A DNA stretch of 64,000 nucleotides from Bacteroidota bacterium (GTDB taxonomy: Bacteria > Bacteroidota > Bacteroidia > Bacteroidales > JAAUTT01): assembly GCA_023429135.1 (NCBI GenBank), contig JAEYWD010000033.1:372-64371 (forward strand). Reading direction: 5' to 3'. Each line of letters begins with the position of its first letter. Position 1 is the first letter of the stretch. Positions 4,201-28,946 of this stretch are shown piece after piece. Under the pieces are notes generated by a model. That model searched no databases. It was given only the letters and a program-made list of their open reading frames with translations, and was not told the DNA's origin. Both the position numbers and the translations under genes were made by a program.

Positions 4201-5997
4201 TTACATTCTCTCAGGAACGTCGATTCCTAATAAATTCATTGATTTTTTAATAACTTTTCCGGTATGCTCCGAGAGGTGCAAGCGAAGATTCCTTACCTCG
4301 GAGTTTTCTTCCTTCAAAATAGGGCAATCGTGATAAAACTGGTTGAATTCTTTCGAAAGATCGTACACATAATTTGCGATTACAGCAGGACTAAGGTTTT
4401 TACCGGCGTCAGCCACTACAGCAGGGAACTTGTAAAGCATGCGGATCAGACTTTTCTCTTTATCAACAGATAAGGCAGTTGATTCCTGAATATCGGCCAT
4501 TTTTATATTTTGATCGGCTGCTTTTCTGAAAATAGATTGAATACGTGCATATGAATATTGTACAAAAGGTCCGGTATTTCCGTTGAAGTCGATGGATTCT
4601 TTAGGATCGAACAGCATATTCTTTTTCGGATCCACTTTCAGTATAAAATATTTGAGAGCAGCCAAACCAATCATCCGCACAATTTCTTCAGTTTGCTCAG
4701 GTGAATATTCATCCAATTTTCCAAGTTCTTTGGACATTTCGCGGGCGGTATTCACCATCTCATCCACCAGGTCGTCGGCATCGACTACGGTACCTTCGCG
4801 CGATTTCATTTTGCCGCTGGGGAGTTCAACCATCCCGTACGACATATGCTTCAGGTTTTTTGCCCAGTTGTATCCAAGTTTATCCATTACAAGCGAAAGA
4901 ACCTGGAAGTGATAGTTCTGTTCGTTGCCAACCACATAAATTAATTCCTGCATGTTGTATTCCTCGAAACGCTGAGCCGCAGTACCCAAATCCTGGGTCA
5001 TATAAACCGAAGTGCCATCAGAGCGGAGCAGAAGCTTTTCGTCGAGACCGTCTTTTGTAAGATCGATCCACACGGAACTATCGGGCCGCTGATAGAGAAC
5101 CCCTTTTTCAAGACCTTTCTGAACAAGCACTTTACCCAGCAGGTAGGTTTCCGATTCATAATAAATCCGGTCGAAATCCACCCCCATCTTTTTGTAAGTC
5201 TCGCTAAAGCCTTCGTAAACCCAGCCATTCATCATTTTCCAGAGCGAAGTAACCGACTCGTCGTGTGCTTCCCACTTCTGAAGCATTTCCTGGGCTTCGA
5301 TTATTAAAGGAGCTTTTTTCTCTGCTTCTTCCTGCGAAATATCCTGTTCAATAAGTTCCTTTATTTGCTTTTTGTATTCTAAATCGAATTTTACGTAATA
5401 ATCGCCCACCAAATGGTCGCCTTTTTTTCCTGCTTTTTCGGGAGTAATACCTTCGCCCCATTTCTGCCAGGCAAGCATCGATTTGCAGATATGGATTCCC
5501 CTGTCGTTTACCAGATTTACCTTTATAACCTCATGGCCATTGGCCTGCAGTATTTTTGAAAGAGAGTATCCCAGCAAATTATTACGAACATGACCCAGGT
5601 GTAATGGCTTGTTTGTGTTCGGGGAAGAATATTCAATCATCACTTTCCGTCCCGAACTGTTTGGACCATGGAGTCCATAAGTTTCATCTGCTGAAAGGCT
5701 TCTGATAAATTTCAACCAGTTGGCTTGTTTTACCGACAGATTTAAAAATCCTTTTATAACGTTGAATTTTTCTACCACCTCACAGTTTTGTACAAGATAA
5801 TTTCCAATTTCGTTTGCAGTTACCTCGGGATTTTTCTTCGATATTTTAACAAAAGGGAAAACGACCAAAGTAAAGTCTCCCTCAAACTCCGTGCGGGTTT
5901 CCTGCAACTGAACCACCTCAGGGCTAATACTTGAAGAATACAAATTTTTAATAGCCTCAATAGTCGAATTTAGTACAATACTCTCAAAATCTGCCAT
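4201..5997 (-). CDS. argS: arginine--tRNA ligase
   Basis: Class I signature SPNTNKPLHLGHVRN, an MSTR-like GKMKSREG, and a C-terminal anticodon-binding DALR-type domain. The track ORF begins at a TTG (6030). I prefer the ATG at 5997 (MADFES...). Confidence 0.93.
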   Translation of the reverse strand: MADFESIVLNSTIEAIKNLYSSSISPEVVQLQETRTEFEGDFTLVVFPFVKISKKNPEVTANEIGNYLVQNCEVVEKFNVIKGFLNLSVKQANWLKFIRSLSADETYGLHGPNSSGRKVMIEYSSPNTNKPLHLGHVRNNLLGYSLSKILQANGHEVIKVNLVNDRGIHICKSMLAWQKWGEGITPEKAGKKGDHLVGDYYVKFDLEYKKQIKELIEQDISQEEAEKKAPLIIEAQEMLQKWEAHDESVTSLWKMMNGWVYEGFSETYKKMGVDFDRIYYESETYLLGKVLVQKGLEKGVLYQRPDSSVWIDLTKDGLDEKLLLRSDGTSVYMTQDLGTAAQRFEEYNMQELIYVVGNEQNYHFQVLSLVMDKLGYNWAKNLKHMSYGMVELPSGKMKSREGTVVDADDLVDEMVNTAREMSKELGKLDEYSPEQTEEIVRMIGLAALKYFILKVDPKKNMLFDPKESIDFNGNTGPFVQYSYARIQSIFRKAADQNIKMADIQESTALSVDKEKSLIRMLYKFPAVVADAGKNLSPAVIANYVYDLSKEFNQFYHDCPILKEENSEVRNLRLHLSEHTGKVIKKSMNLLGIDVPERM

Positions 5998-6072
5998 ATC
6001 AATAAAATTGTTGATAAAAAAAGAGTTCAAATATAATAAAGGTGTGAGAAAAAATCTTAAGTTTGGTGGCTA

Positions 6073-6104
6073 CAAAAAAAGAAAGTGCCATCGCACGATG
6101 ACAC
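6073..6104 (-). terminator. intrinsic-terminator-like hairpin upstream of argS (minus strand)
   Basis: The minus strand reads GTGTCAT-CGTGCG-ATGGCAC followed by TTTCTTTTTTT: a 7-bp stem with one G.U pair, a 6-nt loop and a T-tract. It sits 76-107 nt upstream of the argS ATG. Confidence 0.5.
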
Positions 6105-6112
6105 TCCTAACA

Positions 6113-6200
6113 CAGAACTAACTAACTACAAACTAACTACTACTAACTAACTACTACAACTACTAACTAGAACTAACTAAAACTACTACTATGAGACTAC
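6113..6200. repeat. G-poor tract of AACTA / ACTAC short-word repeats
   Basis: cagaactaactaactacaaactaactactactaactaactactacaactactaactagaactaactaaaactactactatgagactac. Only about 4 G in ~88 nt on the plus strand. On the minus strand it reads as (UAGUU/GUAGU)n. Confidence 0.85.
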
Positions 6201-6397
6201 TTTATGTTTTTATAATATCCTTTTCTAACTTTATACCCTATTTCTAGGTGAACAATTTTTTGAAAACAAATACTGTGCCAAAATTTAAGTTATTTAAAGA
6301 TTTTGTTCTTATTTTTAATTGTTCATTTTACAAATAATACGCCATATTTATTCTAAAGTTACAAATTGATATTTCCTTTAACATATTTTCACAATTT

Positions 6398-7324
6398 ATG
6401 ATTTCAGTCTGTATTCCTGTTTATAATTTTAAAATTGGAGATTTGTTGAATCAACTTGTGTTTTTATTGCAAAGAGCAAAGATTGAGTATGAAATAATAG
6501 TTGCAGAAGATGCCTCAGAACCTTTATTTGCTGAAAATAATTTTAAAGCAGCAGAAAATTGTTTGGCACGATATATTTATTTGAAGAAAAACATTGGGCG
6601 TTCGGCAATACGTAATTATCTGTGTAAAGAAGCCAATTACCCGAATTTGCTTTTCCTTGACTGTGATTCTGTTATAATTACTGAGAATTTTATTTCAAAT
6701 TATATTAGCTGTCTAAACAAGAATATAGTTGTTTATGGCGGAACAAAATATTACGCCCAAAAACCTGAAACGAAATATCTGCTTCACTGGAATTATGGTA
6801 GCAAGCGTGAAATAAAGCCTGTAACGGTAAGAAATAAATATCCTGCTCAGTATTTTAAAACAAATAATTTTTTAATTCCGAAGACTATTTTGATAAATCA
6901 TCCATTTAACGAACAATTAAAAGGATATGGTCATGAGGATACGTTAATGGGGTTGGAGTTATCTCAATTTAATATTCCAGTTTATCATATTGATAATCCC
7001 GTTTTACATGCTGGATTGGAATCCAACGATCAGTTCATTTTCAAAACACAAGAAAGCATTCGGAATCTTTTAATTATAAGGGAAAAGGTTGATTTTCAGG
7101 GAATTAATAAACATTTTAAATTATTGGAAGTGCTTTCCAAAATCCAAGAGTTGCATTTAGTCGGGGTAATACGCATAATCTATTGGCTTTCCCGGCCTTT
7201 GCTGTTATTTTTAGTAATAAACTTTTATTTAATGAAAATCTTCGATTTTTATAAGCTTGGTTTTCTCTGTTCCATTTACAAAAAAAGCACCGCTCTTTTG
7301 AACGATGCTTTTTCAGGTAAATAA
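6398..7324 (+). CDS. family 2 glycosyltransferase
   Basis: 308 aa with the N-terminal ISVCIPVYN...EIIVAEDAS and LDCDS (DxD-like) pattern typical of GT2, plus a hydrophobic C-terminal tail. Confidence 0.75.
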   Translation: MISVCIPVYNFKIGDLLNQLVFLLQRAKIEYEIIVAEDASEPLFAENNFKAAENCLARYIYLKKNIGRSAIRNYLCKEANYPNLLFLDCDSVIITENFISNYISCLNKNIVVYGGTKYYAQKPETKYLLHWNYGSKREIKPVTVRNKYPAQYFKTNNFLIPKTILINHPFNEQLKGYGHEDTLMGLELSQFNIPVYHIDNPVLHAGLESNDQFIFKTQESIRNLLIIREKVDFQGINKHFKLLEVLSKIQELHLVGVIRIIYWLSRPLLLFLVINFYLMKIFDFYKLGFLCSIYKKSTALLNDAFSGK

Positions 7325-7333
7325 TATTTAATT

Positions 7334-8827
7334 CTACATGTGTTCACACCAGTTTGTTTGACGCATATCGCCGGATTTTGCAAACTGAACGTGCATGCCG
7401 AAACAAGCAGAAAGCGATTGAGGAGTATGCACTTTTTCTTCGAGTTTAACGTAATCCCAGAGAAGTTGTTTGTATTCAGGGTGAACGCAGTTCTCGATAA
7501 TGGCCTGAGCTCTTTGAATGGGCGATTTACCGCGTAAATCAGCAATACCCTGCTCGGTAATAACTACTTTAACAGAATGCTCGCTATGATCCACGTGGCT
7601 AACCATGGGAACAATGGCACTGATTTTACCACCTTTTGCAACAGATGGACAGGTGAAGATGGAGAAGAAGCTGTTACGGGTGAAATCGCCCGAACCACCT
7701 AGCCCATTCATCATATGTTTTCCTAAAACGTGTGTACTGTTTACATTCCCAAAAATGTCGACTTCGAGAGCAGTATTAATGGTAATTAATCCTAAACGAC
7801 GAACCACTTCAGGGTTATTGGATAATTCCTGAGGGCGGAGAATGAATTTATTTCTGAAGAAATCGAAATTGGCGTAAACTTCTTCGAGTACTGTTGGGCT
7901 AATTGTTAAAGAACAACCACTGGCAAAGGTAACATTGCCTTCTTTCATAAGCTGAATTACAGAATCCTGAATAACTTCAGTATACATTTTGAAAGGAGGA
8001 ATATCGGGGTTAGCTCCTAAAGAACCGAGTACAGCATTCGCAATATTACCAACACCCGACTGAATAGGTAAAAAGTCCTTGGGTATTACACCGCATTTAA
8101 TCTGGCTTGCAAGGAAGTTGGCCACATTTTCGCCAATCTTGGCAGTTACGGCATCTACAGCAGCAAACCCACCAACTTCGTCGGGACGGTTGGTTTCAAC
8201 AACACCGATAATTTTGGACGGATCCACCTTGATGTATTCTTTACCGCAACGGTCGTCCACATTAAAGATAGGAATAGCTTGACGGTGAGGAGGGTCCATG
8301 GGTTCATAAAGATCGTGAACTCCTCTGAGCGCTTTTGGGTGCTTGTGGTTAAGTTCAATGATAATTCTATCGGCTAACCTGGCAACAGTTGGAGAAATAC
8401 CAACACCGGTAGTAGGAATTATTTCACCCTGCTCGGTAACGTCGCAAGCCTCAATGATGGCTATGTCAATTTTACCAAGAAAACCATATCTGAGTTCCTG
8501 AGCAATTTGTGAAAGGTGCATGTCGAAATAATTCGTATCACCTGCATTTAATAAAGCTTTTAAATCACTGTTCGATTGATATGGAGTACGAAAAGCAATT
8601 GCATTGGCTCTTGCCAGAGCTCCATCAAGAGAGTCACCGGTAGATGCTCCGGTGAACATACCTATTTTAAAAGGATTTCCTTTAGCATGTTCAGCTTTGG
8701 CTCTTTCTCCAATAGCTGTTGGAACTGATTTTGGCGACCCTGCAGGCGTAAAACCACTAAACCCCACATTATCTCCATTGTTTACAAAAGAAGCCGCTTC
8801 TTCGGCTGTCATAAAACGTAGCGCCAT
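7334..8827 (-). CDS. acetyl-CoA hydrolase/transferase family protein (succinate/acetate CoA-transferase type)
   Basis: 497 aa with the N-terminal TAEEAASFV..GD.VGFSGFT and a later GLGGSGDF-type motif, characteristic of the Ach1/Cat1/ASCT family. Confidence 0.8.
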   Translation of the reverse strand: MALRFMTAEEAASFVNNGDNVGFSGFTPAGSPKSVPTAIGERAKAEHAKGNPFKIGMFTGASTGDSLDGALARANAIAFRTPYQSNSDLKALLNAGDTNYFDMHLSQIAQELRYGFLGKIDIAIIEACDVTEQGEIIPTTGVGISPTVARLADRIIIELNHKHPKALRGVHDLYEPMDPPHRQAIPIFNVDDRCGKEYIKVDPSKIIGVVETNRPDEVGGFAAVDAVTAKIGENVANFLASQIKCGVIPKDFLPIQSGVGNIANAVLGSLGANPDIPPFKMYTEVIQDSVIQLMKEGNVTFASGCSLTISPTVLEEVYANFDFFRNKFILRPQELSNNPEVVRRLGLITINTALEVDIFGNVNSTHVLGKHMMNGLGGSGDFTRNSFFSIFTCPSVAKGGKISAIVPMVSHVDHSEHSVKVVITEQGIADLRGKSPIQRAQAIIENCVHPEYKQLLWDYVKLEEKVHTPQSLSACFGMHVQFAKSGDMRQTNWCEHM

Positions 8828-9036
8828 TTTAATATATTTAAAAATGTTGACCTAAGAGAATTAATTAAATTTTAATATCAATTTTTAAGAAAACGCAAAA
8901 TTAATCTTTTCTACCTAAAAAGAGACTCAATCGAAAAGCTTTTGTTATAAAAAAAACAGTAAACAGTTTGGTGTTGAAAATGAAATAATTAAATCATAAA
9001 TTTAAATCGCGATTAATAATCCGAAGCATGGTAACT

Positions 9037-12000
9037 TTATTTCACCACTTTCAACTCCACCCTCCGGTTTAACCCTCTGCCTTCCTCCGTCGTGTTAGTA
9101 GCAACCGGCATCTTTTCACCAAAAAACTTAACAGACAGCTTTTCTTTGGGAGCTCCGTTTTTAACTAGATAATTTATGACAGCAGAGGCTCTGGCTTTGG
9201 ATAGATTAAGGTTGTAAGCTTCAGTTCCTACATCGTCAGTATGACCATGGATTTCGAAGGTATGCTGTGGATATTTCTGTATTAACTCGAGAAGTCTCTT
9301 CAGATCGGTTTGAGAACCTGGCAGGAGAGTGGCTTTGTCGAATTCAAAAAAGATACAGTTAAACCGGATAGTAGCTCCCGGTTTTATTTCGGTGAGATAA
9401 ATATCCCGGTAAATTGTATCTGCTGGTATTTTTTCACTCAGATCGATATTCAGACTTGTAGAGATATAATTTTCCTTTTCGGCAATAATTCCAAAGTTTC
9501 TGTCGGCAATAAGTTTTAATGAATACCGCCCATCGCTTTTTGTGGCCTGTTCTTCCATTATTCTGTCGGAACCCAGATCGGTCTTTTTTACAGTTGCCGC
9601 AACAGGGAGACTATCTGAACTGTTCCTGGTTATTCCGGTGAGGATAATTTCGCGTGGTGCCAGACCTTCTCCTTGCATGATAACTTTATTTTCGTCGTCC
9701 AGGGGCGAAAAAGTAAGGGTAGAGGTTGTTTTACCCCGGGTTACAGGGATAAAACGTATTTGAGCTTTCAGGGTGTCGTCGGGTGCCAGTTTGTATTCCT
9801 GGTCCTTTATTATTTTGAACTGATTTTCGTCCGGGCCACCATTCCTGACATTCCTGATGATCAGTATTTCTTTACTTTTATTAACTAGCACAGGTGCTAA
9901 GGTATCTTTATAATTGCCAACCCGGACTTTTCCAAAATCGAGATAATGAAGAAGAGGAAGAATTTTCTGTTCTATACCTTTTCCAATAATAACTGTGGAG
10001 AACGAGTCGGTAGCTGTATATGTTCTGATGATGGCTCTACGTATTCCTATTTTGGCCGGTTGGAACCTGAATTCCTGGTCGAGCTGCGATTTTGCTTCCA
10101 GCCTGTGAGGAAAAATTTTGGCAACAACCTCGAATTCAGTATCATCCTCACCGGTAACCACAATGCGTCTGATGTTTAACGGATATTTGGTTGTATTCCA
10201 GGCGAATTTTTTGATATTAAGTTCTTTTACACTGTTAACCTGTTGTTCGTTAAACCGGACGGTATCAATTACAGATGGTTTGGGCGATGCAATTGTAAAC
10301 TGTCCTGATATCGCATCTTTCATCACCAGATTTGTTGCCGGGGACCATATTTCAATTCTGTTATCGTCCATCAATGTTGCCAGTTGTAAGCTGGCTGGAT
10401 TGATTACCAAATCACGTATTTTCCGGGAGAATTTGTCCATTACACCCAGAAAGGCTCCGGTTGATGTTTCGTAAATCTCTAGAGTGTTATTTAAAGTCAG
10501 GATATAGACTTTATATTCGTTTGCATCGAATCGGGCAAGGCGGAAGGGTTTACCTCCTAATTTCAGAGTGAATTTTTTTTCAGTGAGATTGTAGATTAGG
10601 AGCGAGTCCTGTTGATTGAAGGCCAGGTAATGCGATTGGGATGAAATCTCATAAGTTTTTGCACTAAGCAGGTTTGATGCGATTTTCCCAGTTGAGCTGT
10701 CAATTAATTTTTTATCGTTTGTAATGAAAAATTTACCACCACCAGTGAATTTCTGAAACTGAAGTTGTGAAATTCTGAAGAGTTCTTTCATTGTTTGAAG
10801 GTCTATCATACAAAGTCCCTGAGGGATTTTGACCAGAGCTTTGGTTCCGTCGGGCGAAATGCTAATACTGCTGATAGTTTCTTTCAACTGCATGGTAGCA
10901 ATTAGTTTGGCAGAATCGGTATTGAACAGTCCAATCACATTCTTATCGGTGAGTGTAATTGTCAACTTCCCTTCAGCAGCGATGGCTGCCCATTTTATAT
11001 CCGGTTGATTAAACAGAAATGCCTTGTTTTCGTACATTCCCGACCAGATTTTTGCATTTTTGGCCGGATCGATGGAAACATTCGCCGGAATTAGTACCTG
11101 CGATCCATCAGGCAAAATTAATGTACCGAAAACCTTTTTCCCTGTTTGCAGGATTCTTCCGGTGAGTCGGTTGTTTTGCAAGTCCCATACAAACGTTTCG
11201 TCTTTGAGGAAAAGATAAAGGAGGTTATTATCGAGGCTTATTACAGCCTTTTTAGCATTGTAGCCACCGAGCGAAGTGATTATTTTTCCGGTTTGAACGT
11301 TCCATGTTTTAGCAAAACCGTTATTATCAGCGGTGATTATCCGTGAACCATCGGGGCTGTAACTCATATTTTCAATAGAAATATTGCTGCCCTCTGTAAA
11401 AGCTGAAATTTCGAGATTTTCATCTGCAAGTTTCAAAGGAGTGAGTTTAACCTGCACTTTTGAGCTTGTGTCGCTGGGAAGATGCCATAAATATTTCAGT
11501 TGACTGGCTTTTTCGATTGTTTTCCAATTGTCTTTTTCTTTCATCCGGTAGCTTATCTCAACAGGTTGTGTCTTTTTTACACCTTCCCAGATGATGCTCG
11601 TATCTTCGCCCACCGAAAAAATCTCTCCGCCCTTTGGAAACACAAGCTTAATCTGCTCTTCGCCCCCTGCAAGCAGGGTTACGCTGACTTCGGGGCATTC
11701 TTCGGTTTTTATCAAAAGTTTGTTTTCGTAGAGACCGGCTTCTGCTGCTGTGAATTTTATTTTTGAATTGAATGTTTCTTCGGGCTTCAACTTGATTGGA
11801 AATTTAATGCTGTCTGCAAGTTTAAATGGAGATTGAGGATCAACTTCGATCGATTTTACTGTTGCAGGAATATTTAACGGTGTCACTCTGAGGCCCTGCA
11901 TTTGCTCCAGACCTACTTTTGCAGCGCCAAACTGAATCAGCGAAGGATTAGCTTCCAATTTCCCCGTTTTTTCCGCCGGAACATCATAATCGAATTCCAG

Positions 12001-21854: not shown

Positions 21855-22003
21855 AATTGATGGGGGTTTGTTATTTTGCAGAAGCTTAAACAAAACAAAT
21901 GTAGAAATTTAGAATAATCAGTATTAATTATTCTAATAATTGATTTTTGCTAACTACTTTTTTCAAATTTCACGTAAAAGAGATCTGGCAAATAATCCAA
22001 TTT

Positions 22004-23581
22004 ATGCAATACATTTCGCCTTTCTCAGTATTGGGGATAGATATAGAAGAATTTAGTCAAAAGCCTGAGGCCATCAATATATCTTTTCTTCGCAAGAAAA
22101 TACTTGCTGAATTTGAACTTAGCAACACAGTTACTATTGAAACTCCTGCCGGAGAACTTTCGAAGAACGATGTATTAGTGGTTTTGGATCAGTTGCAGAA
22201 TGCCGACATTTTTAACTTCCACATTCAGATCACTAAAGATCCAATTCTTTTGGACTTTTTGCAATACGGCGCCCTGGAAGGTGTATTTATTAAAAATCCG
22301 CTTTACAATGACGCTGACTTCCTGAAATTTATATCACCTTATTTTGCTCATTCATATTGTTCTCTTGTTATTTTTATTCTCGAGAACGAGGGAGAGGCTA
22401 ACCCAAACTTATATAGAATACCTCTTCTCATTACTCCAAGTGAAAAACTTTCGCTACTTCAACCCATCAGGCGAAAAATCCTGGACCTGGTTTCAGAAAT
22501 TGAAAAAAATACTTCCTTAATAGCAGATAATAAACGTTTACCCCCTCAAATAAACGAGCAACTTTTCGGCTATAATATCATAAGAATTTTAAACATAATC
22601 GATTACACGGTTTTTGAGCACGATATTGAAGCTTATGTGAATGCCTCCATTGAACTCTTAAATGCTTGTATTACCGATTCAGCCAAAAGATTCCACAAAG
22701 GCGAGCAGGTGCATTTTATACTGAAGCGGCTGGAAATGCTGAAAATGAGTGATGAAAATGCCGAGATTGTTAAGCATTATCTTTCCTTTTTTCAGGAGCA
22801 GCCTAAAGTGGAAGAAAGTTCGGGCGAGAGTATTGTTAAAGCAATTTCATTTATTATTATTGTAATCGTCCTTATGCAAATTGTGCCGAAATGTAACAGG
22901 GGCGATACACCCAATTACCGAAGCTCTTTGAATAATATGATTACAGAGGCGGCAGATACCACCTCCGATACCGATTCAATAAAACACCGGCGCATTTTCA
23001 ATTATTTGAAATTCGGATTTGTTGGAATTTACAAATTTGGTATAAAAAACCCTACATCACGGCATCAATCCTTTAGAACCGGCGATAATCCTTATCCTGC
23101 TCTTTCGTGTCTCGATATTAGTACAAAGGATAAAGCAAATAGTTTAAAGGTTGTTAACCGCACCGATAGAGATCTTGTAAGCATTTTAAATACAGGATCC
23201 GGAAATGCTTTTGTATATATTACTTCACACGACAGTGTATTTATTGGAATAAATATATCAAGTGCCGATGTAATTTTTATGGCCGGGCGTAATTGGGATG
23301 CCAATAGTAAGCTGGTAAAAGTTATTTGGCCAGGCGAAAAAACTTATCATAAGGATATTTATGGAGCCTTTTCGGAGGTTCCTGTAAATTTTTTCAGTTT
23401 GTTATCTGTCACAAAAATCAGGTTTTTAACTAAAGCTGAAAAGACCAGTAAACAGCTCAGGAAAATGCCAGAATTTTCCTTTTTTAACAAGGGGGATTCG
23501 ATTAAGATGAATGAATTTCTTCCGCATAAAATCCTGGAAGAAGATGCCAGGCTTGAAAGTACAGTGGAAATAAATAATTAA
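22004..23581 (+). CDS. paralog 1 (525 aa) of a tandem family: J-like HPD-less N-terminus, helical region, one TM helix (aa ~277-294), ~230-aa C-terminal extracytoplasmic domain
   Basis: Starts at the ATG at 22004 (MQYISPFSVLGIDIEEF...); the track begins at an upstream TTG. The first ~150 aa are roughly two-thirds identical to paralog 2 by eye. The first 20 nt are identical to paralog 2. The TM segment is AISFIIIVIVLMQIV. Confidence 0.8.
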   Translation: MQYISPFSVLGIDIEEFSQKPEAINISFLRKKILAEFELSNTVTIETPAGELSKNDVLVVLDQLQNADIFNFHIQITKDPILLDFLQYGALEGVFIKNPLYNDADFLKFISPYFAHSYCSLVIFILENEGEANPNLYRIPLLITPSEKLSLLQPIRRKILDLVSEIEKNTSLIADNKRLPPQINEQLFGYNIIRILNIIDYTVFEHDIEAYVNASIELLNACITDSAKRFHKGEQVHFILKRLEMLKMSDENAEIVKHYLSFFQEQPKVEESSGESIVKAISFIIIVIVLMQIVPKCNRGDTPNYRSSLNNMITEAADTTSDTDSIKHRRIFNYLKFGFVGIYKFGIKNPTSRHQSFRTGDNPYPALSCLDISTKDKANSLKVVNRTDRDLVSILNTGSGNAFVYITSHDSVFIGINISSADVIFMAGRNWDANSKLVKVIWPGEKTYHKDIYGAFSEVPVNFFSLLSVTKIRFLTKAEKTSKQLRKMPEFSFFNKGDSIKMNEFLPHKILEEDARLESTVEINN

Positions 23582-23603
23582 TATTGTTCAGAACAAAATT
23601 TAT

Positions 23604-25202
23604 ATGCAATACATTTCGCCTTTTTCTTTACTGGGGATTGATATAAAGGAAATTAACCAAAATCCTGATTCCATCAATGTTTCCTTTCTAAGAAAGAAGA
23701 TGCTTGCTGAGTTTGAGCTCAATCAATCGGTAACTATAAAAACTCATGCCGGAGAGCTTTCGAAAAACGATGTTCTGGTGGTATTGGATCAGTTGCAGAA
23801 TCCCCAGATTTTGAGATTCCACATGGAAATTGCAAAGGATAATATTTTGCTAGATTTTTTACAGCGCAATGTCCTGGAAGACACTTTTCTTAAGAACCCG
23901 GTTTACTCACAAAAGGATTTTATTGATTTTATTACACCTTATTTTGCTAACTCATACTGTACACTAATTATCCGTATTTTGGAGACTGAAGGAGAATCCA
24001 ATCCTAATTTGCACAAAATACCTATGTTGATTACTTCCGGCGAAGAACTTAAATGGCTCAACCCTATTAGGAGGAAATTATTCGATTTTATATCAACAAT
24101 TGAGGGTTGGGCACCAAAGGTTAAAACTGCGTACAGAGTAAAGCCTAACCATAATGTTCATAGAGTATTCGGCTTCAATGTTTTAAGAACACTGAATATT
24201 CTGAATCCTTATTTTGAACACCAGGTCGAAGCTTATGTAAAAGCAACTTTTACTGTGGTTGAAAGTTGTATAAACGACAAAAACAATGGCTTCCGGAATA
24301 ATGAACTGGTTTGGTTTCTTCTTAACAGAATACACACCCTGAATTTATCGCCCGAAAATTTAAAACTGGTAAATCACTATTTAAGATTTACAAACCGTAG
24401 TGAGGAAGTTCAGGTTACGAAAAAGGAAAAGAAGACAGGCTCTTTACATGGAATATGGGTGTTGTTTGTAATTGTTTTTGCTGTTGTCCGCATAGCCTCA
24501 ACATGCGATAGTAGCCGTTCTTCGATGGATTCAAATTTTTATGAGAAATATAAAAATACCTTTGCGACAAGTGATATTTATGAATCTGACTCTGCAAAGT
24601 CCAAGAGATTATTTTACAGGTTTAAAAGAGCTTATTCTAATATTTATCGGGATTCCAAAGTGAATACCACTCCGATTTATTCGCCGTTCAAAACCGGAGA
24701 AAATCCTTTCGTCCATTTACTGTCTTTCAATACCCATTACAACGATAAAAAGTTCATATTACGCTTCTCAAATAAATCCGATAAAAATATTCTTGCCATT
24801 TTTAATACACCCGATAGTAATGCTTACTTTTTTATTAAACAAAAGGAAAGCTTTACAATGGGTACAAACTCCGAAAAAGGTAAAATTTTCTTTATTGCTG
24901 GCGAAAAATGGGACTCAGATTTTGATTTGCCAGAACCTGTCTATCAAGGAGAAAGAACATACGGAGATGCCATCAGCGGTAACTTCACCAATCCACCCGA
25001 TAATTTGATGGAGATCATGAACAACGTCTCCATCCGGTTCGACGAAAAGTCCGAAGCTAAATCGGCTTCTTTTACATTTTTAAAGTCGGGCGGCTGTATC
25101 GAAATTAAAAAGAAACTGCCTGCCATACCCGTTGAAACGGTCTCCGCGAAACAAGATCAACCGGAAGTTTTAGAAGTAAAGGAAGCAACAATCGCACATT
25201 AG
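23604..25202 (+). CDS. paralog 2 (532 aa) of the same family; same architecture as paralog 1
   Basis: MQYISPFSLLGIDIKEI...LRKKMLAEFEL...ELSKNDVLVVLDQLQN. The TM segment is GIWVLFVIVFAVVRIAS. The C-terminal domain shares FKTGENPF, NKSDKNILAIFNT, FIAGEKWD and GERTYGD with paralog 1. Confidence 0.8.
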   Translation: MQYISPFSLLGIDIKEINQNPDSINVSFLRKKMLAEFELNQSVTIKTHAGELSKNDVLVVLDQLQNPQILRFHMEIAKDNILLDFLQRNVLEDTFLKNPVYSQKDFIDFITPYFANSYCTLIIRILETEGESNPNLHKIPMLITSGEELKWLNPIRRKLFDFISTIEGWAPKVKTAYRVKPNHNVHRVFGFNVLRTLNILNPYFEHQVEAYVKATFTVVESCINDKNNGFRNNELVWFLLNRIHTLNLSPENLKLVNHYLRFTNRSEEVQVTKKEKKTGSLHGIWVLFVIVFAVVRIASTCDSSRSSMDSNFYEKYKNTFATSDIYESDSAKSKRLFYRFKRAYSNIYRDSKVNTTPIYSPFKTGENPFVHLLSFNTHYNDKKFILRFSNKSDKNILAIFNTPDSNAYFFIKQKESFTMGTNSEKGKIFFIAGEKWDSDFDLPEPVYQGERTYGDAISGNFTNPPDNLMEIMNNVSIRFDEKSEAKSASFTFLKSGGCIEIKKKLPAIPVETVSAKQDQPEVLEVKEATIAH

Positions 25203-25205
25203 AAA

Positions 25206-26117
25206 ATGCAATATTTTTCGCCTTTTACCCAAATGGGGATATCGATTGATGAACTGAAAGCAGAACCTCTTCTTCTCAATTTTAATGTTTTTAAAAAAAG
25301 AGTACTGGCTGAATTTGAGCTTCATAAAAAGGTATCTATAAATTTGCCAATTGGGGAATTGTCGAAAAACGATGTTCTTTTGTTTTTTGAACGTATTCAG
25401 AAGGATTTTCAATATCATACCTGCATTGTTAAGGATGCGCCGTTATTGAAGTTTCTGGAGACGAACCATGTCGAAGAGCCATTTCTGAATTCATACAACA
25501 ATGAGGATTTCCTTTCTTTTTTAGAACCGCATTTTGTCCATTCCTATTGTACTTTTGGAATTGAGTTGCTCAACAACCAGGATCTCTCTACTGAAGTATT
25601 TTCAGCCATTCCGCTCCTAATTCCTGAGGAATTTAACCCAGACTTATTTGAACCTTTAAAAGCCCGGATAAATTCTTTAACCCATGAGATTGAAGAAATT
25701 GCCTCCATGATAACAGAAACCGATGGTATAAAACCTGCCGGCATTTATTTCCAGATTTATGGGAATAATACAATAAAAGTGCTGAATGCCCTGGATAATA
25801 AGCTTTTTTGTGATGAAAAGAATAATTACTTGCACGCAGCTGTTCAGCTTGTAAGGGCTTGTAAGAAGGAAACGGAAGCGGGTTTCCGAAACGAACAACT
25901 GGTTGAATTTATTCTTACAGGAATTGAAAAGCTGAAATCTAATATCCTTAGAGATGAAATTAAACGGCTTTCTTCCATGAAAAAAAGAATATACGATATG
26001 CCAGGAGTCGAAGAACCGGTAAACCCTTTCGCGTCCTTTTTGGTTCTGGGTGGACTTTGTATTCTGTTATTCTTTGTTATAAAGGGTATTATATTCGTGC
26101 TTCAACAGATATTTTAA
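25206..26117 (+). CDS. paralog 3 (303 aa); same N-terminal and helical region, ends right after the TM helix (no C-terminal domain)
   Basis: MQYFSPFTQMGISIDEL...FKKRVLAEFEL...ELSKNDVLLFFERIQ. The TM segment FASFLVLGGLCILLFFVIKGIIFVL lies at the C-terminus. Its stop codon overlaps the Hsp70 stop. Confidence 0.75.
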   Translation: MQYFSPFTQMGISIDELKAEPLLLNFNVFKKRVLAEFELHKKVSINLPIGELSKNDVLLFFERIQKDFQYHTCIVKDAPLLKFLETNHVEEPFLNSYNNEDFLSFLEPHFVHSYCTFGIELLNNQDLSTEVFSAIPLLIPEEFNPDLFEPLKARINSLTHEIEEIASMITETDGIKPAGIYFQIYGNNTIKVLNALDNKLFCDEKNNYLHAAVQLVRACKKETEAGFRNEQLVEFILTGIEKLKSNILRDEIKRLSSMKKRIYDMPGVEEPVNPFASFLVLGGLCILLFFVIKGIIFVLQQIF

Positions 26118-28612
26118 CCGATCCCGGTGCCTTTGATTCTGAAATCGTCTTTTTCTTCCGGCGGAAGAATAGCATTCAACTGATAAACCACACTCAGTAC
26201 TTCATCGTAATTCTTGCGTTCGAGGGCTTTTTCGCCCAATGCAATCAGTTGTTTCGCCCTTTCTTCGTTAAGGTAGTTTCTTTCCTTAAGATCGGCATAA
26301 TGGTGAAAAATCATGATGACCATATAAGGCTCTTTCTGCGATATTTTCCACTTGAGGTTACGCAGCTTTTCAGTAAGAACCGAAATGGCTCTTTTGTTGT
26401 CGGTTGCAAGCACTTCCTTTTCGCGTGCAATAAGCTTTTCCAGTTCTCTTTTATCTTCGTCGGTACCCTTGGATGTTACCCAGCTTTCGCAGGAGTTTTT
26501 GGCATCGAAGTATTCCGATTTAACCTGAACAATATGAGCGTCAACTGATACCTGATCAAAGAGCCGGGACAGTTTCCGTAGCTTATCTTCCATTTGGTAG
26601 CGGGTGTCGGTAACATCGTCCTGCGAGAGCGTGCGCGAATTCTGGTGCAGTTCCTCCAACTGGTCGAGAATTTTTTTCAGCTTGCCGGCATCTTCATATT
26701 TTTCCTCATCCTGCAACATCTTCAGATCTTGCTTGGCACGCATTATCAAAGTATAAATGTCGTCGCGGAGTTTGGTGAGATTCACCTGCCTTTCCGAAGG
26801 ACTGAACACGTTCATGAATTCTTGGTCGGTCATCAAAAAGTAGGTAGTAATTTTAAGATCGCGCGATTCGCTTATTTCCAGGGTAATTTCCACATCCGAG
26901 CCCTTCACCAGGTTACGTGCTATGTCTTTGGCATTAATCTCAATCACACCAATCGGTTGGTTTGATGAAGGACTTGAGAACCGGTCACCTTCCACAATAT
27001 TGATAATTACACTTTCATCACTGCCTTTCTGGAGAGTCTTTGATATTTCGCGAGTAATTGTTTTTTTGATGGGAAGAATGGCGTTCTTTTCGAAAATAAC
27101 CTCAAGCCGGGTGGTATTGTTTTCCAGGTCGTCAACCTCAATACAAATATCGTTTGGCAATGGCTGTCCGGTAATGTTGAATTTACCCTGTAAAATTCCT
27201 ATCGAAGGAATATCGACATCCAGCACGTTATTTTTGGAATCGTATATTTTTAAGGAAAAGCAATTAAAGGTATTTCGTGAGAGGGGTAACATTTCGGAGA
27301 TTCTCATGCCGGCAGCTTTTGTTCCCGAGTCGTAGCCTCCGTCTTCGCGGACTATACGATACGAAAGTCCTTCCCAGTTACCATCAATTTCGGCAACAAA
27401 ATATTCTTCATTATCGTGACTGGTTTTCTGATAAGCCATCCGCACTTTGATATCCGTTTTCAAAGCTCCCGCTTTTATTTCCTGTGGCCCGGCAGTTATT
27501 GTTTTAGCTTTGGAACCTGCATAATAAGCAGCGCCCACGGCAATTGCCGTTGTAGGATCTATGCTGCAGTTAACCTCTATACCCAGATTTTCCCTGATGG
27601 AATTACGCACAAAAGGTATATAGGTGCTTCCGCCAACCATAAGGATATGGTTAACATCTGCCGACGATATTCCGTTTTTTTCGAGTATTGAGCAAATCAT
27701 TTCAATGGTTGAGTCAATGCGTGGTTTAATGCATTGTTCAAACTGTGAGCGGGTAATTGTCATAAAAACTTCGTGAAGTTCTCCTTCGTCGTCGTCTGTT
27801 TCGAATTCTATTTCGGTTTTTTCGTTGAGCGAAAGCATTACTTTGGCCTCTTCGGCTTTATGCAACAGTATATAATATAATTTGTTGTATTTGCCGCTAT
27901 TGCTTTTCATTTCATGTTCCAGGTTGTTGAAATTCCCGATCTTATTCAAATGGGGAATAATAAACGATTCAATAATCTGATTATCAAAATCGAGTCCTCC
28001 CAGGAAATTATCACCTTCATGATCCACAATTTTCATTTCTCCGTCTTCGGTCTTAACAAGAGCAACGTCAAAAGTGCCCCCGCCAAGATCGTATACCAGC
28101 CATTGTTCTTTTCCGGTATTGTTGCTTTCGGTGCTGTTGGCATAGGCTAGACTGGCCGCTATGGGTTCCTGAAGCAGAAGTACTTCCCGGAACCCGGCTT
28201 CGTAACCGGCTTTTTTGGTTGCGTTGGACTGAATGGTATCGAAAGATGCCGGAATGGTTATAACCACTGATTCGATTGCTTCGTTGGTATATACAAAGTT
28301 CTTAAGCTCCTTCAGTACATACGACGACAAGTTGATAGGAGTGGTTCTGCTTCCAAGGCATTTTACATGGAAACTTTCGCTGGTTCCCATTTTACGCTTG
28401 AAAGAGCCGAACACATTCTCGGGATCTTTTTCGACATATTCCTTAGCTTTGTCTCCTACAATTACCCGTTCCTTGCGGAAACCAACCACTGATGGGAGCG
28501 TTTCTTTATGTCCGACGGGGTTTTTGAATACTTCAACTTTCCCCTGAGAGTATTTCGCGATTAATGAATTTGTGGTGCCTAAATCGATACCAAAATCAAC
28601 TGTTGATGCCAT
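26114..28612 (-). CDS. atypical Hsp70-family ATPase (832 aa) with a long helical C-terminal extension
   Basis: Actin-fold/Hsp70 motifs: FGIDLGTTNS, VITIPASF, LLQEPIAASLAY, VYDLGGGTFDVALV and MVGGSTYIPFV. A beta-sandwich-like middle region and a ~230-aa charged helical tail follow. There is no EEVD. Confidence 0.9.
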   Translation of the reverse strand: MASTVDFGIDLGTTNSLIAKYSQGKVEVFKNPVGHKETLPSVVGFRKERVIVGDKAKEYVEKDPENVFGSFKRKMGTSESFHVKCLGSRTTPINLSSYVLKELKNFVYTNEAIESVVITIPASFDTIQSNATKKAGYEAGFREVLLLQEPIAASLAYANSTESNNTGKEQWLVYDLGGGTFDVALVKTEDGEMKIVDHEGDNFLGGLDFDNQIIESFIIPHLNKIGNFNNLEHEMKSNSGKYNKLYYILLHKAEEAKVMLSLNEKTEIEFETDDDEGELHEVFMTITRSQFEQCIKPRIDSTIEMICSILEKNGISSADVNHILMVGGSTYIPFVRNSIRENLGIEVNCSIDPTTAIAVGAAYYAGSKAKTITAGPQEIKAGALKTDIKVRMAYQKTSHDNEEYFVAEIDGNWEGLSYRIVREDGGYDSGTKAAGMRISEMLPLSRNTFNCFSLKIYDSKNNVLDVDIPSIGILQGKFNITGQPLPNDICIEVDDLENNTTRLEVIFEKNAILPIKKTITREISKTLQKGSDESVIINIVEGDRFSSPSSNQPIGVIEINAKDIARNLVKGSDVEITLEISESRDLKITTYFLMTDQEFMNVFSPSERQVNLTKLRDDIYTLIMRAKQDLKMLQDEEKYEDAGKLKKILDQLEELHQNSRTLSQDDVTDTRYQMEDKLRKLSRLFDQVSVDAHIVQVKSEYFDAKNSCESWVTSKGTDEDKRELEKLIAREKEVLATDNKRAISVLTEKLRNLKWKISQKEPYMVIMIFHHYADLKERNYLNEERAKQLIALGEKALERKNYDEVLSVVYQLNAILPPEEKDDFRIKGTGIG

Positions 28613-28622
28613 ATTATTTTCT

Positions 28623-28946
28623 TTATGCCGATTGAACTATTACTACTCCGCGTTGTACGATAGTTTTACGGCTTTCGTTTCCTGAATATATAATAGGTTT
28701 TATAACTTCGGCGATCACCATTTTATCCGATATTTTGCCTGCAATATCGGCTTCGCAATCGGTGCGCGTTTCGTTATATGCTTCACCAACAGGGTTGTGG
28801 ACCGATAAACCTATTTCTCCCATGTATTCGTGAATACGGGCCAGGTTTCTGCTTATTCCAGTCAGCTCGGGTTTACCATCTGTTTTCTTTTGAATCTCGA
28901 AAAGCTGATTCATAATTTTTATCAGGATTTTCTGCTGATCATCCAT
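28623..28946 (-). CDS. mini GrpE-like protein (107 aa), co-operonic with the Hsp70
   Basis: The C-terminal part aligns by eye with the GrpE C-terminal domain. [23 protein letters not shown] corresponds to E. coli [47 protein letters not shown] corresponds to [23 protein letters not shown]. It lacks the long N-terminal helix. The gap to the Hsp70 start is 10 nt. Confidence 0.6.
   Translation of the reverse strand: [107 protein letters not shown]

Follow-up and report, generated by a model that had tools for sequence, protein, structure and literature searches.

A divergent Hsp70 encoded with a stalk-less GrpE-like protein and a family of membrane-anchored partner proteins

Bacterial Hsp70 biology rests on three types, DnaK, HscA, and HscC (PMC8215388), and a 2026 review describes other DnaK derivatives as unexplored "dark matter" (PMC13580251). 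A locus in a 64,000-nucleotide stretch of DNA from a Bacteroidota bacterium (the window) raises the question of which partners serve one such derivative and how they might engage it. A first-pass annotation of the window had described a gene for an 832-aa Hsp70, a gene for a 107-aa protein (mini-GrpE) 10 nt upstream of it, and three tandem genes for membrane-anchored paralogs that converge on this pair. All five ORFs and the 10-nt spacing are borne out by the ORF list. The annotation knew of no account of such a gene set, and our literature searches likewise found no description of the module, which gives one DnaK derivative a defined, testable partner set. Its features are as follows.

22004..23581, + strand: paralog 1, 525 aa counted from the conserved MQY start; presumed cytoplasmic domain, TM helix at about residues 277-294 (22832-22885), Cys297 (22892-22894), and outer domain at residues 298-525
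23604..25202, + strand: paralog 2, 532 aa; presumed cytoplasmic domain, TM helix at about residues 283-300 (24450-24503), Cys301 (24504-24506), and outer domain at residues 302-532
25206..26117, + strand: paralog 3, a tail-anchored short form of 303 aa (family HMM 8e-70; AF2 pLDDT 91.8); presumed cytoplasmic domain at residues 1-~265 and TM helix at residues 274-302 (26025-26111)
26114..28612, - strand: Hsp70, 832 aa (ORF)
27512..28612, - strand: Hsp70 nucleotide-binding domain (NBD), residues 1-367 (Pfam HSP70 1.8e-71, residues 7-366)
27170..27511, - strand: Hsp70 linker and extra segment, residues 368-481; a variable Ser/Thr/Lys-rich linker, then a conserved ~95 aa
26807..27169, - strand: putative, diverged SBD-β-like domain of the Hsp70, residues 482-602 (hhalign P = 0.0088, 87 columns)
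26117..26806, - strand: Hsp70 C-terminal region of ~225 aa (lid and extension), from the family alignment and apparent helicity
26117-26134, - strand: conserved Hsp70 tail KGTG[IL]G, KGTGIG in the window protein
28623..28946, - strand: mini-GrpE, 107 aa (ORF; AF2 fold)

The MQY start of paralog 1, at 22004, falls inside a longer, TTG-initiated ORF of 544 aa (21947..23581, + strand). At the other end of the tandem array, the stop codons of paralog 3 and the Hsp70 overlap in the TTAA at 26114-26117.

Catalytic centre and J-contact surface of the Hsp70

The nucleotide-binding motifs quoted in the first-pass annotation are found at residues 10-16, 149-157, 173-183, and 325-335, and both the Pfam match to the NBD and matches to DnaK structures in the PDB (4e-58) uphold the assignment to Hsp70. 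Six residues, D8, K70, E171, D194, T199, and D201 in DnaK numbering, are invariant in 60/60 aligned family members; as judged from sequence, the protein is an ATPase-competent Hsp70 derivative. It belongs to neither of two established equivalog families, scoring 242 bits against the DnaK model TIGR02350 (cut-off 822) and 228 bits against the HscA model TIGR01991 (cut-off 708).

The catalytic centre is kept, yet the residues by which DnaK reads the universally required HPD tripeptide of J-proteins are lost. In the same 60-member alignment, the position of DnaK R167 is occupied by V/L/I/F/Y/K, that of Q378 by Y/F, and those of E206, E217, and D326 by K/R. Alignments to PDB 2v7y and to the HscC of the E. 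coli record show the R167 change independently. Read with the roles assigned to these J-contact and docking residues in DnaK (PMC8215388), the substitutions mark a remodelled J-binding and docking surface. HscA has a deletion of the GrpE-signature loop and HscC lacks it (PMC8215388); here the loop is kept and is one residue shorter.

The short hydrophobic interdomain linker of DnaK (389-VLLLD-393) is missing after the NBD. Its place is taken by a variable Ser/Thr/Lys-rich stretch of 20-40 aa and a conserved extra segment of ~95 aa (~115 aa in total). This region (residues 368-481) has no match in Pfam or the PDB by sequence, and its extra segment is probably β-rich. The loss of the linker and of the docking residues R167 and D326 may mean that the protein has ceased to be an allosteric chaperone.

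Pfam offers no coverage past residue 366, and the earlier description of a β-sandwich-like middle region fared unevenly. When aligned with the E. coli DnaK SBD by hhalign, the family profile gives a weak match in the correct register (P = 0.0088 over 87 columns) that spans the LIAKNTTIP...VLQGER...IEVTFDID strands, and HscC aligns in this same register, also weakly (E = 0.16). The PDB, searched by profile HMM with the C-terminal half, yielded no DnaK SBD. The C-terminal region that follows contains a family-conserved DDVTD.KYQLED.KRK motif and ends, as previously remarked, without EEVD; the conserved KGTG[IL]G tail stands there. For the SBD comparison, the J-domain and GrpE tests described below, and the residue mapping, the sequences of E. 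coli DnaK, DnaJ, CbpA, HscB, DjlA, and GrpE and of eukaryotic and Thermus J-domains were entered by hand.

The GrpE-like protein and the membrane paralogs

The AF2 model of mini-GrpE (pLDDT 92.4) contains helices at residues 3-22 and 26-44 followed by six strands, forming a two-helix hairpin (residues 3-44) and a β-wing (residues 47-106) with the long N-terminal stalk missing. A Foldseek search of the PDB ranks GrpE or GrpEL1 structures in all of its 12 best places (probability up to 1.00, E = 1.7e-3, TMq 0.45-0.59, 101-119 alignment columns), with GrpEL1 as the best match. The earlier proposal of a GrpE-like protein without the long N-terminal helix is thus corroborated at the level of the predicted fold, where mini-GrpE comprises one half of the four-helix bundle and the β-wing. 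A long α-helical N-terminal stalk is common to all described GrpE-like factors (PMC12987570), and GrpE also has a disordered N-terminus. Mini-GrpE is the smallest GrpE-like protein met in this analysis; we found 344 homologs of 100-140 aa, and homolog lengths span 99-142 aa. Its relationship to GrpE rests on this predicted fold, with moderate TM-scores, and is invisible to sequence profiles: Pfam GrpE (PF01025) misses the window protein and matches 1/34 homologs at E = 0.025, a mini-GrpE profile finds no GrpE in the PDB, and hhalign of that profile against E. coli GrpE is not significant.

The paralogy of the three membrane protein genes is evident from identities of 42% and 35% to paralog 1 and from the shared invariant motifs MQY.SPF, LAEFEL, and SKND; the first 20 nt of paralogs 1 and 2 are identical, as the first-pass annotation had noted. 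A word-indexed homolog search with paralog 3 returned just two proteins, and the family emerged from an exhaustive HMMER search that yielded 617 cluster representatives. RefSeq and UniProt annotate these proteins as hypothetical, and scans with Pfam, NCBIfam, and PADLOC models returned nothing for either the paralogs or the 107-aa protein. Each paralog has, as described before, one hydrophobic helix at about residues 275-300 and, in paralogs 1 and 2, ~230 aa beyond it; 119/149 family members carry a TM helix at this position. The family plan is a ~265-aa N-terminal domain followed by a single TM helix and, in some members, an outer domain, making these proteins single-pass or tail-anchored. 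The N-terminal domain is assumed to be cytoplasmic because no signal peptide precedes it. An outer-domain profile matched the PDB only through spurious C2H2 zinc-finger linkers (TGxxPY). Alignments of the paralog family contain no conserved stretch of 7-10 columns.

Does the N-terminus of these proteins represent a J-domain, as its spacing had suggested? The HPD/HPE tripeptide is missing, and the sequence A-E-F/L-E-L, invariant in the family, stands in its place, followed by a predicted β-hairpin. Pfam DnaJ (PF00226) matches 0/40 family members at E ≤ 1. Against a J-domain profile, hhalign recovers the very register that had been proposed, with a probability of 0.3% and P = 0.2, and single-sequence tests against DnaJ and HscB gave nothing. 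The AF2 model of paralog 3 has helices at residues 6-9, 26-40, 54-76, and 78-86 and a hairpin at 44-53; Foldseek with this whole 303-aa model found no J-domain among the 50 matches listed, all with E ≥ 0.15. A J-domain relationship thus finds no support in motif, Pfam, or hhalign, nor among the Foldseek matches listed. A J-like role, as distinct from J-domain ancestry, is plausible from gene context. The N-terminal domain is not significantly similar to DjlB or DjlC either (P about 0.2). It might just as well serve as client, anchor, or effector.

The membrane anchor bears on the first of these options. A cysteine directly follows the TM helix in 73/124 family members, against ~16% expected, often in a lipobox-like context (I/L-A-T/S/A-C). 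Together with the unusually conserved extreme N-terminus (Y.SPF) and the tail anchors of the short forms, a class often needing chaperoned post-translational insertion, this could mean that the Hsp70 and mini-GrpE hold tail- or signal-anchored proteins and deliver them for insertion or C-terminal export, in which case the Cys next to the membrane could be a site of lipidation or of a disulfide bond. We consider it improbable that the partners are clients of this kind. What is conserved is a whole 265-aa domain that is confidently folded (pLDDT 92), unlike a mere client segment, and in a plasmid-borne variant this domain lies inside the protein and is joined to TPR repeats, an arrangement like that of an adaptor. 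Moreover, Thr at -1 is atypical for a lipobox, and paralog 3 lacks the distal Cys.

Linkage, distribution, and mobility of the genes

The genome survey used mini-GrpE as its query, and the reverse direction was covered by four contig look-ups from the partner family. At least 153 species-representative genomes share the gene set. An Hsp70 of this subtype lies directly after the mini-GrpE gene in 77/82 loci (the remaining 5/82 have no adjoining Hsp70), and 31/38 loci with full flanks have a gene of the paralog family within 2 kb; all four partner-family members looked up converge on the gene for this Hsp70. The expected preferential linkage between the paralogs and this Hsp70 was thus found in both directions, and the paralogs vary between 0 and 3 copies per locus. 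Gene adjacency and the retained GrpE-signature loop of the Hsp70 point to an exchange-factor role, and on the modelled fold we predict that mini-GrpE is a private nucleotide-exchange factor.

Linkage of this extent is far beyond chance. In 7 of the 38 well-flanked loci no partner gene lies within 10 kb, as would be expected if an orphan Hsp70 paralog merely happened to sit beside unrelated membrane genes and a small ORF. Such a coincidence is effectively refuted by the survey and highly improbable, given that the adjacency recurs in four gene orders, in various taxonomic orders and phyla, and among otherwise unrelated flanks, and that the trio has been co-transferred on a plasmid.

The module is distributed patchily across Bacteroidota, Calditrichota, Ignavibacteria, KSB1, Acidobacteria, and Gammaproteobacteria. 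The trio is also present on the conjugative IncP plasmid pSDM007 (Pseudomonas), beside IS66 and a RelE/ParE pair, and it is here that the partner domain is internal and TPR-fused. As a set, the three gene families recur in different phyla and have reached a plasmid, and the Pseudomonas copy makes experiments practical.

This mobility, the patchy distribution with non-syntenic flanks, and the variable paralog copy number and outer domains are also what a conflict or defence module might display. There, the Hsp70 and its exchange factor would form a switch and the membrane proteins would be sensors or effectors, for instance membrane-perturbing ones, with diversifying outer domains. A distant Vibrio plasmid variant even encodes an extra AAA ATPase that matches the PADLOC IetA models, and proposals exist for conflict systems with Hsp70 and GrpE in other phyla. 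The latter, described by Kaur et al. 2020 mainly in actinobacteria and firmicutes, are linked to GAP1-N2 GTPases, which form their core together with FNIII-repeat proteins that carry a fused DnaJ domain or TPR repeats (PMC7159879). They resemble the present loci in setting an extra Hsp70 and GrpE among the genes of a dedicated system, and some of their partners are TPR fusions; the loci examined here contain no GTPase or FNIII protein, and identity with the GTPase-centred systems is ruled out. We judge a defence function unlikely. The IetA match is a generic AAA match confined to the remote variant, PADLOC-DB 2.0 has no match for the five window proteins, the plasmid Hsp70, or the plasmid partner, and neither the INPHARED phages nor IMG/VR contain relatives. 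The proteins carry no recognisable toxin or nuclease domain, and the neighbouring genes in the window are of a housekeeping kind (thrC, NDH-2, and an FGE-sulfatase-like protein).

Proposed mechanism and comparison with known Hsp70 systems

We consider it fairly probable that the module is a self-contained, specialised Hsp70 system, private and recruited to the inner membrane on its cytoplasmic side. The N-terminal domain of the partners would bring in the Hsp70, and the partners would thereby replace J-proteins as the targeting or activating factor. The interface would be a different one, probably charge-swapped, with the acidic AEFEL of the partner facing the K/R at DnaK positions 206 and 217. 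Mini-GrpE would then reset the ATPase by ADP release, and the remodelled surfaces would shield the module from the housekeeping proteins DnaJ, DnaK, and GrpE. Because the outer domains are optional and fast-evolving and the paralogs number 0-3 per locus, several inputs or sites at the membrane or envelope may act on a single ATPase. Membrane proteins, or else the partners, may be its client. Should the partners indeed stimulate the ATPase, nature would offer a case of Hsp70 control that does not depend on J-proteins, and mini-GrpE would, if its predicted role is correct, give structural studies a compact exchange factor. More tentatively, as something possible rather than probable, the module could represent a fourth type of bacterial Hsp70 machine, one independent of J-domains, with HPD-less partners, a charge-swapped interface, a stalk-less GrpE, and a cassette that passes horizontally from phylum to phylum and couples envelope input to a cytoplasmic ATPase.

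The analogy with E. coli HscC, DjlB, and DjlC drawn in the first-pass annotation holds, down to the convergent gene geometry in the E. coli record. In both cases a specialised, non-housekeeping Hsp70 is encoded beside paralogous tail-anchored partner genes, one of which is convergent with the gene for the Hsp70, and an inner-membrane function is presumed. Neither DnaJ nor CbpA serves the HscC system; HscC-type proteins have ~550-580 aa, no GrpE signature, and DjlB and DjlC as partners (PMC8215388), and these partners carry a real J-domain with an HPE variant (PMC10410713). HscC itself has 556 aa, keeps the R167 equivalent, and has neither a GrpE signature nor an exchange factor. The window Hsp70, in contrast, has 832 aa, an extra segment, a long C-terminal region, and a private mini-GrpE, has lost R167 and Q378, and is 30% identical to HscC in the NBD only; its partners resemble neither DjlB nor DjlC.

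Parallels with DnaK-DnaJ-GrpE are the Hsp70 ATPase with its catalytic residues and GrpE-signature loop all kept, the GrpE-fold protein encoded directly upstream, and, as proposed here, a third, targeting component. The differences lie in the score well under the DnaK cut-off, the absent VLLLD linker, the replaced J-contact residues, the stalk-less GrpE-like protein to which Pfam GrpE is blind, and the HPD-less third component.

The mitochondrial import motor combines mtHsp70, Mge1/GrpEL1, Pam18, and the HPD-less J-like Pam16. By analogy, the present module may likewise run a membrane-tethered Hsp70 cycle with a GrpE-type factor and an HPD-less membrane component. Its partners, however, have no detectable homology to Pam16, and the loci contain neither a translocase nor an HPD-bearing Pam18 equivalent; a single canonical J-protein occurs in the flanks of 84 loci (~1.2 Mb).

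DjlA joins a TM segment, a TerB-like domain, and a J-domain, and thus offers another case of membrane-anchored Hsp70 recruitment. The window lacks a TerB gene and the partners lack a J-domain, whereas in 14 related loci a separate ~165-aa TerB-domain protein (PF05099, E = 5e-7) is encoded by a fourth gene of the operon.

A linked set of Hsp70, GrpE-like and membrane-protein genes

All five open reading frames proposed in the first-pass annotation are present in the window, with the 10-nt spacing between the 107-aa gene and the Hsp70 start and the identical first 20 nt of paralogs 1 and 2 that it had described:

22004..23581, + strand: paralog 1, 525 aa counted from the conserved MQY start (the TTG ORF opens at 21947)
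23604..25202, + strand: paralog 2, 532 aa
25206..26117, + strand: paralog 3, 303 aa
26114..28612, - strand: Hsp70-like protein, 832 aa
28623..28946, - strand: mini-GrpE, 107 aa

Paralog 3 and the Hsp70 gene have stop codons that overlap in a single TTAA (26114-26117), leaving no space for a terminator between the convergent genes. The same 4-nt TTAA is common to convergent Hsp70 and partner genes at L001 (3356-3359; a close relative of the window locus with two paralogs versus three), L011 (12809-12812) and L087 (7722-7725), and gaps of ≤25 nt, read from survey coordinates, occur in ~10 of the convergent loci. Such tight ends suggest overlapping 3′ transcripts or transcriptional interference. 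The set is flanked by ordinary genes, namely thrC, NDH-2, and those for SnoaL-like and FGE-sulfatase-like proteins. G+C content is 0.36 at 22001-26000, which holds the paralog genes, against 0.40-0.44 over most of the window, the Hsp70/mini-GrpE segment included.

One genome per species was scanned with a mini-GrpE profile, which found relatives in at least 153 species genomes, mostly Bacteroidota (Cytophagales, Chitinophagales, Saprospiraceae, Sphingobacteriales, and Flavobacterium) with a few in Calditrichota, Ignavibacteria, KSB1, Acidobacteria, and one Methylococcales MAG. Custom HMMs were then run on 80 retained loci, earlier loci, and the window. The atypical Hsp70 gene lies directly 3′ of the mini-GrpE gene in 77/82 loci, and at least one partner gene lies within 2 kb in 31 of the 38 loci in which the Hsp70 is full-length and each flank measures 2.5 kb or more. 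Copy number ranges from zero to three among these 38 (0 in 7, 1 in 24, 2 in 6, 3 in 1), the window being the sole three-copy locus. Counted by partner gene, there are four arrangements: downstream convergent (16), upstream same-strand (12), upstream divergent (7), and downstream same-strand (4). In the reverse look-up, started from four divergent partner-family members, all four genes converge on an atypical Hsp70 gene from its 3′ side. The neighborhood check suggested in the first-pass annotation thus reveals preferential linkage in both directions; the membrane-anchored family co-travels with the Hsp70 and mini-GrpE, and a coincidental neighborhood is effectively refuted.

Some loci depart from this pattern. 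Orphan mini-GrpE genes with no adjacent Hsp70 occur in a few genomes (L020, L028, L051, L078, and L035); at L035 (10001-12330) a partner gene comes immediately after mini-GrpE. Among seven well-flanked partner-less loci, four (L055, L056, L063, and L066) have a gene for a DAGK/YegS-type lipid kinase just 5′ of mini-GrpE, as does the short contig L058; a histidine kinase is also encoded downstream in L056 and L063. Either an alternative partner or synteny peculiar to the clade may account for this. A TerB-domain protein of ~165 aa (PF05099, E 5e-7; L082 12812-13363, L081 4403-4903, and 12 other loci) completes the operon in one sub-clade, in the order partner, mini-GrpE, Hsp70, TerB, recalling DjlA, which carries a TerB-like domain. 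No TerB gene was found in the window. The sole canonical J-protein in all flanks (L077 5388-6011, 207 aa, Pfam DnaJ 1e-18) lies ~700 bp downstream of that module's TerB gene.

An Hsp70 with altered J-contact residues

The Hsp70 identity assigned to the 832-aa protein is borne out by a Pfam HSP70 match (1.8e-71) limited to residues 7-366 and by its best solved relatives, the nucleotide-binding domains (NBDs) of DnaK (4e-58). It scores far under the NCBIfam cut-offs for DnaK and HscA, and is an equivalog of neither. Sixty full-length proteins of the family, all taken from the survey, were aligned to E. coli DnaK, whose hand-entered sequence supplies the numbering used here. Catalytic residues D8, K70, E171, D194, T199, and D201 are invariant, from which the protein is predicted to be an ATPase-competent Hsp70 derivative.

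In DnaK, Arg167 and Gln378 form hydrogen bonds with D35 of the J-domain HPD tripeptide, E206, D211, and E217 seat the basic J-domain helix II, and the clamp between the NBD and the substrate-binding domain (SBD) includes R167 and D326 (Mayer review, PMC8215388). In the family, position 167 is V/L/I/F/Y in 53/60 and K in 3/60, with R absent among the six commonest residues listed; position 378 is Y or F in 60/60; and K or R occupies positions 206 (46/60), 217 (55/60), and the docking position 326 (55/60). The R167-to-L change in the window protein also appears in alignments independent of the hand-entered sequence (a DnaK structure and HscC). Given their documented J-contacts, the changes at 167, 378, 206, and 217 indicate a rebuilt J-reading surface in place of the canonical one and, as judged from sequence, loss of the residues that read HPD. 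The GrpE signature loop, missing from HscC and removed by a deletion in HscA (PMC8215388), is kept here, shorter by just one residue.

Following the NBD, a variable Ser/Thr/Lys-rich stretch and a conserved ~95-aa segment (residues ~388-481) replace the VLLLD linker. Residues 482-602 align weakly, in the correct register, to the DnaK substrate-binding β-domain (hhalign P=0.0088), and the HscC alignment over this region is likewise weak (E=0.16); a profile HMM search of the PDB gave no match for the region after the NBD, including the putative SBD-β. The last ~230 residues, putatively helical, contain a conserved DDVTD.KYQLED.KRK motif and end, as claimed, with no EEVD, a conserved KGTG[IL]G tail standing in its place.

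A reduced GrpE fold and an HPD-less membrane partner

Across 344 homologs of the 107-aa protein (~100-140 aa), the motifs ETRTDCEA and EVIKPI are strongly conserved. Sequence methods (Pfam, a profile search of the PDB, and hhalign against E. coli GrpE) did not link it to GrpE. Its confident AlphaFold model (pLDDT 92.4) contains helices at 3-22 and 26-44 followed by six strands. When this model is compared with the PDB by Foldseek, GrpE or GrpEL1 chains fill the top 12 places (probability up to 1.00, E from 1.7e-3, TMq 0.45-0.59, essentially the whole protein aligned). The model and these matches point to a GrpE fold cut down to the bundle hairpin and β-wing, upholding the proposed GrpE-like fold that lacks the long N-terminal helix. 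A canonical GrpE is rejected by the absent Pfam GrpE match and the reduced fold. The protein is predicted to lack the stalk that belongs to the conserved architecture shared by known GrpE-like factors (2025 review, PMC12987570).

The three paralogs share 35-42% identity and invariant MQY.SPF, LAEFEL, and SKND motifs, and, as first described, only paralogs 1 and 2 extend ~230 residues beyond the hydrophobic helix. An exhaustive profile search recovers 617 cluster representatives (270 at E≤1e-10), labeled hypothetical in RefSeq and UniProt, with lengths of ~300 or ~500-650 aa. Conservation is concentrated in the first ~265 residues, and a single hydrophobic helix is present at about residues 275-300 in 119 of 149 representatives. 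The C-terminal part is optional, diverges quickly, and has no relative in Pfam or the PDB. The paralog 3 model (pLDDT 91.8) is all-helical save a hairpin at 44-53, with the transmembrane (TM) helix at its end (274-302).

The J-domain homology suggested for the N-terminus is not supported. AEFEL is invariant at the HPD position throughout the family; 0/40 members match Pfam DnaJ, even at E≤1; and neither DjlB nor DjlC shows similarity. Comparison with a J-domain profile by hhalign gives Prob 0.3% and P=0.2, this low-confidence alignment falling in the register first suggested. The Foldseek matches listed for whole paralog 3 are generic helical proteins, all at E≥0.15. The partners are not recognizable J-domain proteins; the modeled helix order (6-9, 26-40, hairpin, 54-76, 78-86) is compatible with a much-modified J-like layout.

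A Cys directly follows the TM helix in 73/124 members versus ~16% expected (Cys297 of paralog 1, window 22892-22894; Cys301 of paralog 2, 24504-24506) and in 24/32 of those short forms that end 0-3 residues further on. It often lies within a lipobox-like R-I/L-A-T/S/A-C behind a basic stretch, and lipidation, cleavage or a disulfide is possible.

A probable membrane-recruited chaperone cycle and its relatives

We consider it probable that these proteins form a dedicated membrane-recruited chaperone cycle. The cytoplasmic domain of the membrane proteins would recruit, and perhaps activate, the Hsp70 via a new interface, the GrpE-fold protein encoded just upstream would recycle it, and the remodeled Hsp70 surfaces would insulate the module from housekeeping chaperones. 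About one-third to one-half of the weight we give this cycle falls on a more tentative version in which the partner stimulates ATP hydrolysis. A charge swap between the invariant acidic AEFEL residues and K/R at Hsp70 positions 206 and 217 is suggestive, if speculative. That the partners are clients or pro-proteins seems unlikely.

E. coli HscC, accompanied by two tail-anchored J-protein paralogs (DjlB and DjlC), offers the closest analog, a comparison drawn in the first-pass annotation. The likeness extends to layout, as djlC converges on hscC just as the paralogs converge on the Hsp70, but not to the partners, which show no similarity to DjlB or DjlC. HscC has 556 aa rather than 832, retains R167, works without an exchange factor, and pairs with true J-domains; identity to it is 30% and confined to the NBD. 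These differences exclude HscC-type membership. The standard review recognizes only DnaK, HscA, and HscC among bacterial Hsp70 types (PMC8215388), and according to a 2026 review, DnaK derivatives beyond these are unexplored (PMC13580251). No description of the module was found in the searched literature; its parts are recognizable Hsp70-system parts, and what is new is the architecture, a predicted exchange factor that lacks the stalk, and a family of membrane partners without HPD.

A role in defense or conflict is improbable. The Hsp70-GrpE conflict systems that Kaur et al. 2020 describe center on GTPases and occur in other phyla (PMC7159879), and phage collections yielded no relatives.

The complete trio also occurs in Pseudomonas hygromyciniae, on its conjugative IncP plasmid pSDM007 (NZ_CP070507.1, 3418-8398), near an IS66 element and a RelE/ParE pair, where the partner domain (residues 249-498) is fused to N-terminal TPR repeats. 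Plasmid 2 of Vibrio rumoiensis (4374-11057) carries a remote variant with a 114-aa protein and an 832-aa Hsp70. Also encoded there are an AAA ATPase (PADLOC IetA-like, 1e-24), a peptidoglycan-binding protein, and a 539-aa product that starts ...NPFNLL...; the variant seems to be an enlarged system based on this type of Hsp70.
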